This document shows positions 27,760-28,500 of a stretch of DNA of 32,000 bases, in pieces; the first letter of the stretch is position 1; each line of letters opens with the position of its first letter. Source of the stretch: Ruminococcus albus 7 = DSM 20455 (lineage in GTDB: Bacteria > Bacillota > Clostridia > Oscillospirales > Ruminococcaceae); contig NC_014824.1 of NCBI RefSeq assembly GCF_000179635.2, positions 360,001 to 392,000 of the forward strand. Reading direction: 5' to 3'. Position numbers and translations under genes: made by a program. A model generated the notes under the pieces. The model saw nothing but the letters and a program-made list of their open reading frames with translations. It did not search any database and had not been told where the DNA came from.

Positions 27760-28500
27760 TTATTCAACTTTTATACCAAAGGTCAGCGTTTCGGTGTGCT
27801 TGCCTGCGTAGGTCGCGCCTGTTGCCTTGGAGAATGCCAGTGTCTTGGACTGCTCGCCTGTCTTGGTATCGAACTCTGCAACTGTGCCGCCTACCGAAAC
27901 GTTGGTATCACCTGACTTTATGGTATAATTCGCGGTGGAATCGCCTATCTTTGCGTTGAAGGTATCTCCGCTTTCAGTATTGCTTGCGCTGTCAATGGTG
28001 ACAACTATCTTCGCGTTCTGGGTAAGTCTGACATTCGTGGCAGTTATCTGTCTGGTAGTTTCTGCAGTGTCGGAAAGCGACACACTTGCGGGGATAACTA
28101 CCGAGTATGTGGGTGATACATCATAGGATACTTCCATACCTGCGGTTGAAGGTATGGGGTTTGGCATATTATCGGGATCGGGAACTATCTCGATATCCCC
28201 GTTCGCTCTTAAAACAAGATGCAGGGTGCTTTCTTTCTGGATATTGTAATCGGCAAGAGTTCTGTCATCTTCAAGCTGTTTGCCTGCAAATATCAGTCTC
28301 TGTTTGTTGGGAGCAATACTCTCTTTATCCTGTATTTTTGCCTTTACGTTTTCAATAGTATCGCTGGGTTCAACATCAAGAGTGATGGTTTTGCCTGTCA
28401 GGGTCTTGACGAATATCTGCATTGCGTTTGCGGTCAGTGTGCAGACAGATGTTATCATAGTCAGCGCCATGCCTGCCGCCAGTAATCTTTTAGTTTTCAT
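27760..28500 (-). CDS. 246-aa secreted fusion: signal peptide, eukaryote-type ubiquitin domain, Pro-rich linker, paralogue-family domain
   Basis: GGAG RBS. TAATG overlap with the upstream gene. Signal peptide [26 protein letters not shown]. Residues 27-98 are ubiquitin-like. Family motifs are [12 protein letters not shown] and [16 protein letters not shown]. Confidence 0.9.
28207..28422 (-). other. Ubiquitin domain (72 residues, 65/72 identical to canonical eukaryotic ubiquitin by hand alignment, LRGG tail absent)
   Basis: [72 protein letters not shown]. The ATG of Met1 is at 28422-28420. Confidence 0.9.

Follow-up and report, generated by a model that had tools for sequence, protein, structure and literature searches.

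The window analysed here is a 32,000-nucleotide stretch of the genome of Ruminococcus albus 7 (DSM 20455; contig NC_014824.1, positions 360,001 to 392,000), in which a minus-strand gene (27760-28500) on a 420,706-bp replicon, presumably the largest plasmid of this strain although a megablast of 26-32 kb against PLSDB gave no match, encodes a 246-aa protein that reads as a signal peptide, a ubiquitin, a linker and a pilin-like domain. An exact-protein look-up identifies it as ADU24080.1 (WP_013483628.1, UniProt E6UK84), labelled "ubiquitin family protein" of R. albus 7. The signal peptide (residues 1-26, 28423-28500, minus strand) is of the Sec type, with MKTKR, a hydrophobic core and a TANA c-region as its n-, h- and c-parts, and signal peptidase I (SPase I) is predicted to cut at ANA↓M, so that ubiquitin Met1 would become the mature N-terminus (TANA↓MQIF). 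The ubiquitin module follows directly (residues 27-98, 28207-28422, minus strand). Lacking the LRGG tail, it is identical to human ubiquitin at 65 of 72 positions without a gap (phmmer E=1e-38 against ubiquitin chains in the PDB), and the seven substitutions are E16D, G35S, P37A, D39N, Q40K, G53D and S57A. A preliminary description of this DNA had arrived at the same identity and the same substitutions by hand, and the database alignment agrees with it; the module also matches PF00240 with E=7.8e-31 and 106 bits, well above the cut-off of 25.4 bits. All seven lysines (6, 11, 27, 29, 33, 48, 63) and the L8/I44/V70 patch are kept, as was originally noted, together with H68, and the module contains no cysteine.

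After R72 the protein reads ANGD instead of LRGG (LVLR-ANGD) and runs on into a Pro-rich linker (residues 99-123, 28132-28206, minus strand) that is predicted to be disordered. With the LRGG tail lost, the ubiquitin module can be neither activated by an E1 enzyme nor released by Gly-Gly cleavage, in line with the first reading of the sequence. The remainder of the protein is an all-beta, immunoglobulin (Ig)-like domain (residues 124-246, 27763-28131, minus strand), which is in frame with the ubiquitin and common to neighbouring open reading frames (ORFs). A full-length AlphaFold 2 (AF2) model, which had a mean predicted local distance difference test score (pLDDT) of only 63 because its alignment contained 7 rows, was used solely for domain boundaries and linker disorder; it predicts a beta-grasp fold (beta-beta-alpha-beta-beta) for residues 27-97 at pLDDT 75-90 and a disordered stretch at residues 101-129 at pLDDT ~30, after which comes the beta-sandwich. 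The protein ends TFGIKVE, and ADU24080.1 itself bears no NPXTG sorting signal, dockerin or SLH domain. A ribosome-binding site, AAGGAG (28509-28514, minus strand), lies 8 nt 5' of the ATG, and the gene overlaps its upstream paralogue by one base in the sequence TAATG, composed of the paralogue's TAA (28500-28502) and the ubiquitin gene's ATG (28498-28500). The preliminary description was thus accurate as to the signal peptide ending TANA, the GGAG ribosome-binding site, the overlap and the in-frame continuation into the family domain.

Could a ubiquitin so close to the human protein have entered a bacterial genome sequence as a eukaryotic contaminant, or through a chimeric assembly in which a bacterial gene had been spliced to a eukaryotic read? 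Contaminating poly-ubiquitin with LRGGMQIF repeats is indeed present on many short contigs of isolate assemblies. Yet the finished genome of R. albus 7 and independent assemblies all contain the identical protein; one of these assemblies (L001, a Logan assembly; here L numbers denote genome loci and P numbers proteins of the present analysis) has the same gene order, and the 90% cluster of ADU24080.1 comprises 60 sequences drawn from NCBI, ENA and Logan. In L082 a relative with 84% overall identity is encoded on a 41.8-kb contig, where it adjoins the housekeeping genes dxs, ispA, xseAB, tsaD and nusB. Both junctions, between signal peptide and ubiquitin and between ubiquitin and domain, are kept in diverged orthologues, and the bacterial ribosome-binding site, the overlap with the upstream gene, the codon usage and the GC content (0.40 for the ubiquitin segment and 0.41 for the window) fit the locality. 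As the fusion constitutes a diverged family, a chimera is ruled out, and the artefact explanation is effectively refuted. The bacterial context, called firm at the outset, has remained so.

The C-terminal domain is part of a family for which neither Pfam nor NCBIfam has a model (none of 40 diverse members matches one over the shared region), and a profile search for sequence relatives in the PDB gave noise only. An AF2 model of the domain, made from a 12-row alignment, is all-beta with a mean pLDDT of 88.7 and a core above 93. The best 50 Foldseek matches of this model in the PDB are all chaperone-usher pilus subunits, among them FimA, CfaB, PapA and CsuA/B and the tip adhesins CsuE and CupB6, with probabilities up to 1.0, a template-modelling (TM) score of ~0.5 and a best E of 8.7e-4. 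Sequence homology to these pilins does not extend beyond a weak, sub-threshold match of one paralogue, the 168-aa product of the downstream gene, to Spore Coat Protein U (PF05229, E=0.0014), an archaic chaperone-usher pilin family. No chaperone or usher gene was found among the window ORFs scanned or in L001, and the host is a Gram-positive Ruminococcus. In the absence of that machinery, "pilus" is used here as an analogy, and the R. albus protein is outside the chaperone-usher family. A profile search of 1.84 billion cluster representatives detected at least 2,769 family members (clusters at 50% identity). The usual order in these proteins is signal peptide, domain and variable module (Big_2, beta-helix, DUF6273 or Flg_new); in a minority the variable module (LRR_5, DUF285 or ubiquitin) comes first and the domain second, LRR_5 and DUF285 thus occupying the same N-terminal slot as ubiquitin in ADU24080.1. 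These architectures place the domain in a large unnamed family of Clostridia secreted proteins, where it serves as the scaffold on which other modules vary; the family is itself an uncharacterised surface scaffold of Gram-positives.

The arrangement is reminiscent of the two-domain tip adhesins FimH, PapG, CsuE, CfaE and CupB6, in which, as may be the case in ADU24080.1, an N-terminal binding domain is followed by a linker and a C-terminal pilin-fold domain, and which are likewise encoded in operons of paralogous pilin-like subunits. Unlike those adhesins, the ubiquitin protein belongs to a host without periplasm, chaperone or usher, and anchoring would be by an NPXTG sortase. On the minus strand the genes are ordered 404-aa protein, PI-PLC-X protein, 65-aa remnant, 183-aa paralogue, ubiquitin fusion, 168-aa paralogue and 188-aa protein. 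The 404-aa family member (30728-31942) consists of a signal peptide, the pilin-like domain and beta-helix repeats. The 65-aa ORF (29080-29277) is a truncated remnant of a pilin-like paralogue. The 183-aa upstream paralogue (28500-29051), composed of signal peptide, N-terminal extension and pilin-like domain, is translationally coupled to the ubiquitin gene, and the 168-aa paralogue (27241-27747) also has the pilin-like domain. The 188-aa secreted protein (26662-27228) has an S/P-rich C-terminal region followed by NPATG, a hydrophobic segment and RNKGSKDEEE, a probable sortase (NPXTG) anchor, although its score against NF033846 (Rumino_NPXTG) is 19.4 bits and below the 23.5-bit cut-off; it is the probable cell-wall anchor of the operon set. 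We do not claim the family domain for this protein, because hhalign paired only its signal peptide and N-terminal extension (probability 63%). The core order of 183-aa paralogue, ubiquitin fusion and downstream gene is kept in L082 and L001.

The gene between the 404-aa protein and the remnant encodes a phosphatidylinositol-specific phospholipase C (PI-PLC) X-domain protein (29362-30636, minus strand) without a recognisable signal peptide; it lies within this operon of surface proteins and has a ~140-aa N-terminal region of no known type. Bacterial PI-PLCs typically act on eukaryotic phosphatidylinositol or glycosylphosphatidylinositol anchors. The association of PI-PLC X with the ubiquitin cluster is absent from the related locus L082.

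Relatives of the fusion were searched for with the C-terminal domain alone, as a full-length query was swamped by eukaryotic poly-ubiquitins. Ubiquitin fusions were recovered at 99 (P0121), 89 (P0122), 83 (P0123), 78 (P0125) and 52% identity (P0135/P0136) in that domain, along with ubiquitin-less relatives (P0124, P0126-P0134, P0137). Among the best 150 family members there are four more ubiquitin-fusion clusters at 50% identity (P0153, P0169, P0170 and P0260), of which P0153 has an added Big_2 and P0260 an added DUF6273 module. Across lineages a shared cassette, "A-N-A, ubiquitin ... (N/D)G-x-IEI", sits in backgrounds that otherwise differ. Apart from ANA in place of AFA, P0135 has the signal peptide of the ubiquitin-less P0130 and nearly that of P0134. 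In the ubiquitin-less P0126 and 183-aa window paralogue a Pro-rich segment comes directly after the signal peptide, which places the insertion of ubiquitin between the signal peptide and the N-terminal extension of a family member that already existed; these extensions cover 20-30 residues ahead of the first strand in the paralogues, and the linker of ADU24080.1 corresponds to them. Ubiquitin therefore apparently moves as a cassette among paralogues. In R. albus 8 the 404-aa protein has a homologue that carries it between the signal peptide and X25, with the pilin-like domain and the beta-helix coming next. The ubiquitin of P0125 is 68/72 identical to human and keeps LVLRLR-SDG, and since LRLR-SDG is retained there, the LRGG tail must have decayed after fusion.

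On the R. albus 7 chromosome the same ubiquitin, linker and pilin-like module are joined straight to NPATG, a transmembrane segment and a charged tail in ADU21378.1 (P0288). This protein (P0288/P0289) looks like the product of a deletion-type rearrangement that joins the ubiquitin/pilin-like gene to the S-rich part and NPATG signal of the 188-aa protein; its residue 16 is E, as against D in the window copy, and its annotated start is ubiquitin Met1. Near-identical R. albus relatives differ in the loop 35-40 (SIAPNK, GVAPDA, SIAPDK or GIPPDQ; 28300-28320 in the window) and have D or N at residue 53 (28262-28264). P0121 is 99% identical to the window protein in the pilin-like domain although its ubiquitin loop 35-40 and residue 53 change. 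This variation reflects either a local hot spot or cassette recombination.

The two halves of the fusion evolve under different constraint, as estimated by the method of Nei and Gojobori for nonsynonymous (dN) and synonymous (dS) divergence. Between the window protein and P0125, dN is 0.042 (dS 3.0) for ubiquitin and 0.160 (dS 1.3) for the pilin-like domain, and between the window protein and P0136 it is 0.159 (dS 1.55) and 0.392 (dS 2.95), respectively. In these two more distant comparisons only, the dN of ubiquitin is ~2.5-4x below that of the attached domain. In the closest pair, with P0123, dN is equal at 0.072 and 0.076 while dS is higher for ubiquitin (0.64) than for the pilin-like domain (0.41), which hints at a separate history of the ubiquitin segment.

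A wider comparison takes in ubiquitin modules from other bacteria. Pairwise among 48 bacterial ubiquitin modules, the median proportion of synonymous differences (pS) is 0.88, that is, saturated, whereas that of nonsynonymous differences (pN) is 0.09. GC content at third codon positions (GC3) ranges from 0.18 to 0.96 and correlates with the GC of the locus (r=0.85). Such tracking of host GC, together with saturated synonymous sites, points to long-term residence in bacteria. In 58 bacterial copies K11 and K27 are invariant, K29 and I44 are present in 57, H68 in 56, K63 and V70 in 55, L8, K33 and K48 in 54 and K6 in 51, so that the exposed lysines, R42, H68 and the I44 patch are kept at 88-100%. 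The positions that do vary (16, 19, 22, 26, 28, 37, 39, 40, 53 and 57) are largely those that vary in eukaryotes. The comparison shows a ubiquitin held near-canonical, evidently by purifying selection, within bacteria that have no ubiquitin system.

Where did the module come from? Its ultimate origin is eukaryotic; a ThiS/MoaD-type origin was rejected on identity and context. The preliminary description had favoured capture of a eukaryotic gene, with gut or rumen eukaryotes as plausible donors, and cited D16 and A57 as states known from eukaryotes. Those residues are indeed natural there, being present in 50 and 57 of 131 eukaryote-type units. Position 53 tells a different story: G is found in 112 and N in 1 of the 131 eukaryote-type units, whereas N occurs in 15 of 58 bacterial copies and D in the window copy. 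The carriers of N53 belong to Ruminococcus, other Clostridia, Synergistaceae, Bacteroidales, Fibrobacter and Sphingomonas, and a residue so much more frequent in bacterial copies than in eukaryote-type ones suggests that an already "bacterial" module spread between bacteria. Codon amelioration, N53/D53 and the mobility of the cassette make another bacterium the more likely immediate donor, and the gene probably came to R. albus from the bacterial gene pool. Capture from eukaryotes thus stands as the ultimate origin of the module, and direct capture from a rumen eukaryote is not supported as the simplest explanation for this gene. We rejected the naming of a eukaryotic donor as undeterminable: the closest of the eukaryote-type units sampled, 66/72 to the window module and 69/72 to that of P0125, come from unrelated sources, and 72 residues with ~3-7 differences leave the donor unresolvable.

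How unusual is the R. albus gene? In one scan of species-representative prokaryotic genomes, at least 550 ubiquitin stretches confirmed by tblastn were found among the matches listed, and 80 genome loci were kept for analysis. At 47 of the 80, a hydrophobic signal peptide stands directly before the Met1 of a ubiquitin matching the human one at 62-71 of 72 positions, and 42 of these 47 have an AXA-like site next to that residue. The available sequence is 10 kb or longer at 35 of the 47 loci; megabase scaffolds and one complete chromosome are among the contigs. What follows the ubiquitin depends on the lineage. Autotransporter beta-barrels follow it in Proteobacteria and a Planctomycete (L024, L035, L058, L062, L066), SLH repeats in Cohnella and other Bacillota (L029, L077, L065, L039), dockerins in rumen Clostridia and Ruminococcus (L015, L032), Flg_new, LRR or Big_2 in Synergistaceae and Coriobacteriaceae and GLUG in Fibrobacter; beta-helix modules are also among the partners. 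Like ADU24080.1, these proteins combine an AXA↓Met1 junction and 62-71/72 identity with a predicted extracytoplasmic destination, and unlike it they have a partner specific to their own lineage or none, and some keep LRGG. Examples are WP_002846857.1 of R. albus 8, WP_090108639.1 of Cohnella sp. OV330, WP_264942492.1 of Sphingomonas canadensis and WP_218156333.1 of Dyella sp. OK004, and NCBI labels several such proteins "ubiquitin family protein" or "ubiquitin-like protein". The R. albus 7 gene is therefore one member of a widespread bacterial class with the predicted architecture signal peptide, ubiquitin and surface anchor.

Free-standing versions without any partner occur in Collimonas (L052), Dyella humi (L054), Sphingomonas canadensis (L055) and Dyella sp. 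OK004 (L068), on contigs of chromosomal size. The LRGG end is intact in three of the four (Dyella sp. OK004, Sphingomonas canadensis and Collimonas), and the Dyella sp. OK004 ubiquitin is 71/72 identical to human. The LRGG-ending products would be essentially authentic mature ubiquitin, competent for conjugation if they were in a eukaryotic cytosol. In the autotransporters, which are of type Va and come from an unclassified Pseudomonadota, Methylotenera, Loktanella, Pseudovibrio denitrificans and the planctomycete Novipirellula rosea, ubiquitin is the whole passenger. Two loci in metagenome-assembled genomes of Methanobacteriota (L008, L011) differ in architecture from the bacterial class: their ubiquitin (69-70/72) is internal, after ~120 residues and with no adjacent signal peptide, and is followed by LRG or LRS and more sequence. 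The species-representative genomes also contain eukaryotic contamination, in the form of plant- or animal-type poly-ubiquitin on contigs of ~300-2400 bp in isolate assemblies of Streptomyces, Microbacterium, Shewanella, Marinobacter and others (L005, L012, L013, L016-L027, L030, L046, L048, L061, L064).

The preliminary description knew of a single precedent, BfUbb of Bacteroides fragilis, at roughly 60-65% identity. The figure was right, as BfUbb is 63% identical to human ubiquitin, and its closest relative was noted to be an entomopoxvirus ubiquitin (PMC3352274). As a sole precedent BfUbb does not hold, given the 47 loci with signal peptide and Met1-ubiquitin. BfUbb and BoUbb, the latter from B. 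ovatus, are free-standing 76-aa proteins of Gram-negative Bacteroides, of ~61-63% identity, that act as antibacterial toxins imported through SusCD (PMC3352274, PMC5705921, PMC11467351); BfUbb has an SPase I signal directly before Met1 and targets a periplasmic peptidyl-prolyl isomerase after SusCD import (PMC5705921, PMC11467351). Like the R. albus module they represent a ubiquitin of eukaryotic origin in a gut bacterium, non-conjugatable and preceded at Met1 by an SPase I signal, and they act outside the producer cell, as is predicted for the R. albus 7 module. The latter differs in being 90% identical to human ubiquitin, devoid of cysteine, fused to a pilin-like domain rather than free-standing, and encoded by a Gram-positive organism. 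Eukaryotic precursors (poly-ubiquitin, Ub-eL40 and Ub-eS31) also carry ubiquitin as their N-terminal part, but they are cytosolic and cleaved by deubiquitinases at Gly76, whereas the R. albus fusion has an export signal and no Gly-Gly. Virus-encoded ubiquitins show that the gene can be transferred outside eukaryotic cells. The ThiS/MoaD, SAMP and Bil/Bub-type systems are cytoplasmic, with a C-terminal Gly(-Gly) and E1/E2/JAB neighbours; the R. albus protein has no GG end and bears an export signal, no E1, E2 or JAB domain was found among the window ORFs scanned, and it is outside any ubiquitin-like conjugation system.

What might a bacterium without a ubiquitin system gain from such a protein? 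The best reading, which we consider somewhat more probable than not, is a surface-displayed, non-conjugatable ubiquitin ligand or mimic. After Sec export and cleavage by signal peptidase at ANA↓M, ubiquitin Met1 would be the N-terminus, and the flexible Pro-rich linker would join the ubiquitin to the pilin-like Ig-fold domain, so that a native-like ubiquitin might be placed outside the cell wall as the head of a stalk or fibre, by analogy with the binding domain of FimH or CsuE. There it would be recognised non-covalently by ubiquitin-binding partners, for which it would serve as a ligand or mimic. That the ubiquitin is an exported, surface-associated head is likely. That its function depends on ubiquitin-specific recognition is favoured with less assurance; strict conservation of exposed residues would be difficult to account for if nothing recognised the module as ubiquitin. 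As to the partner, rumen eukaryotes (the ciliates that graze on R. albus, and anaerobic fungi) or the host would be favoured, because only ubiquitin-recognising proteins readily explain near-complete conservation of exposed residues and because the wider class lives wherever protists graze; a eukaryotic partner is nonetheless a tentative proposal that may well prove wrong. The ligand or decoy suggested in the preliminary description is plausible.

Several points weigh against this reading. Expression, cleavage and surface location of ADU24080.1 are predictions made from sequence. As the protein has no sorting signal, dockerin or SLH of its own, attachment rests on a putative association with the paralogues and the NPXTG protein. 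Donor-strand polymerisation is hypothetical, and the Gram-positive host has neither chaperone nor usher; the Foldseek likeness of the domain is moderate (TM ~0.5, best E=8.7e-4), and confidence in the full-length model is low (pLDDT 63). The ubiquitin receptors known so far are found in the cytosol, and ubiquitin on a bacterial surface or in a phagosome lumen would be topologically outside their reach. To our knowledge, no extracellular ubiquitin partner has been described in protozoa or fungi. Finally, the changes in loop 35-40 and at position 53 in close R. albus relatives touch the I36 region of the recognition surface.

If nothing specifically recognises the module, ubiquitin could be an inert structural cap, a stable, soluble and protease-resistant N-terminal protector or spacer. 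The rumen is highly proteolytic, ubiquitin is always at the extreme N-terminus, where exoproteolysis would start, and it is attached to very different scaffolds, all of which would suit such a role. An inert cap needs the fold and not the sequence, yet K6, K11, K27, K29, K33, K48, K63, R42, H68 and the I44 patch are kept at the 88-100% given above while synonymous sites are saturated, the two more distant comparisons give ubiquitin a dN ~2.5-4x lower than that of its partner domain, and the positions that vary are largely those variable in eukaryotes; we therefore regard a cap as unlikely. The same conservation bears on a module for bacterial self-assembly or adhesion, whose partner would be an R. 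albus surface protein, a cellulosome-like component or plant material. The operon is made of paralogous surface proteins, and in fibre-degrading Ruminococcus ubiquitin is found on dockerin proteins and on a protein with X25 (carbohydrate-binding-like) and beta-helix modules. However, a new bacterial partner should let the remaining surface drift, whereas the conservation is global and mirrors the eukaryotic pattern, and the same module is present in non-fibrolytic Proteobacteria, Planctomycetes and Verrucomicrobia, which leaves this explanation quite improbable.

A third possibility is that the protein is a weapon of the BfUbb kind, a toxin or toxin-delivery domain directed against competing bacteria. 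The mobile-element-rich window is typical of competition loci, but the R. albus module is tethered to a pilin-like scaffold and not released, no immunity-like gene or toxin domain is adjacent among the neighbours scanned, and members of the class, anchored by autotransporters or SLH, are common among bacteria that live free in soil and water. The C-terminal Cys of BfUbb is reportedly involved in its activity, and the R. albus ubiquitin module contains no cysteine. Although BfUbb and BoUbb are the sole experimentally studied secreted bacterial ubiquitins and have the same SPase I signal and Met1 (PMC5705921, PMC11467351), authentic bovine ubiquitin, to which the R. albus module is 90% identical, is inactive on BfUbb-sensitive strains (PMC5705921). 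A weapon of this type is improbable.

Beyond R. albus, surface display of a native-like ubiquitin could be a widespread and long-standing bacterial strategy to engage the ubiquitin-recognising machinery of eukaryotic grazers, hosts and neighbours. The phyla it would span are Bacillota, Proteobacteria, Planctomycetes, Verrucomicrobia, Bacteroidota, Fibrobacter, Synergistota and Actinomycetota. We offer this as a speculative, rather doubtful generalisation. If it were true, eukaryotes would possess a hitherto overlooked recognition of ubiquitin outside the cell or in the phagosome lumen, and the R. albus fusion would offer the first model that is cultured and tractable, since R. albus 7 is a type strain whose genome is complete.

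Ubiquitin is regarded as a eukaryotic hallmark, and here a cultured, genome-finished rumen bacterium encodes a 90%-identical copy that bears an export signal and would sit on a pilus-like scaffold, while dozens of unrelated bacteria place ubiquitin on their own surface-anchoring devices. This raises the question of what binds ubiquitin outside cells in microbial communities, be it in protist grazing, in contact with fungi or hosts or among bacterial partners. It also has practical consequences, since bacterial proteins may turn up when gut, rumen and environmental samples are probed with anti-ubiquitin reagents or by ubiquitin-remnant proteomics. BfUbb has been proposed as an antigenic mimic of ubiquitin (PMC6194340), and such mimicry may have many further sources. 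The literature that we found treats B. fragilis, along with B. ovatus, as the only bacteria that encode a ubiquitin homologue. In the openly accessible literature no paper on ADU24080.1 or on near-canonical or fused bacterial ubiquitins was found, and the 24 papers found that name both R. albus and ubiquitin do so incidentally. The protein itself was nevertheless not undescribed, as had been supposed, because ADU24080.1/E6UK84 is already annotated in databases as a member of the ubiquitin family; the greater novelty lies in the cross-phylum pattern of surface anchors.

Other genes of the window lie outside the ubiquitin operon. Just downstream of the gene for the NPXTG protein, a 139-aa ORF (26150-26569, minus strand) ends in a type I dockerin and is apparently a C-terminal fragment. 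Positions 1-25997 are dense in mobile-element genes. They include two ~1000-aa helicases with 8-10 HA repeats (4-2937 and 2927-5926), a RelB-like antitoxin (6395-7057), a large serine recombinase (13507-15222), a DUF3945/Toprim_Crpt protein (15405-16121), an IS200-type Y1 transposase (16309-16785) and a DUF6431 protein (22987-23547). A Mu-like rve transposase (23577-24953) overlaps an AAA_22/TniB-like ATPase (24937-25761), and the ubiquitin operon begins ~1 kb or less from this transposition module. A 1689-aa protein (8077-13146, plus strand) contains seven Flg_new (Listeria-Bacteroides repeat) units and Ig domains; Flg_new also comes after ubiquitin in the Synergistaceae and Coriobacteriaceae proteins (L007, L018).

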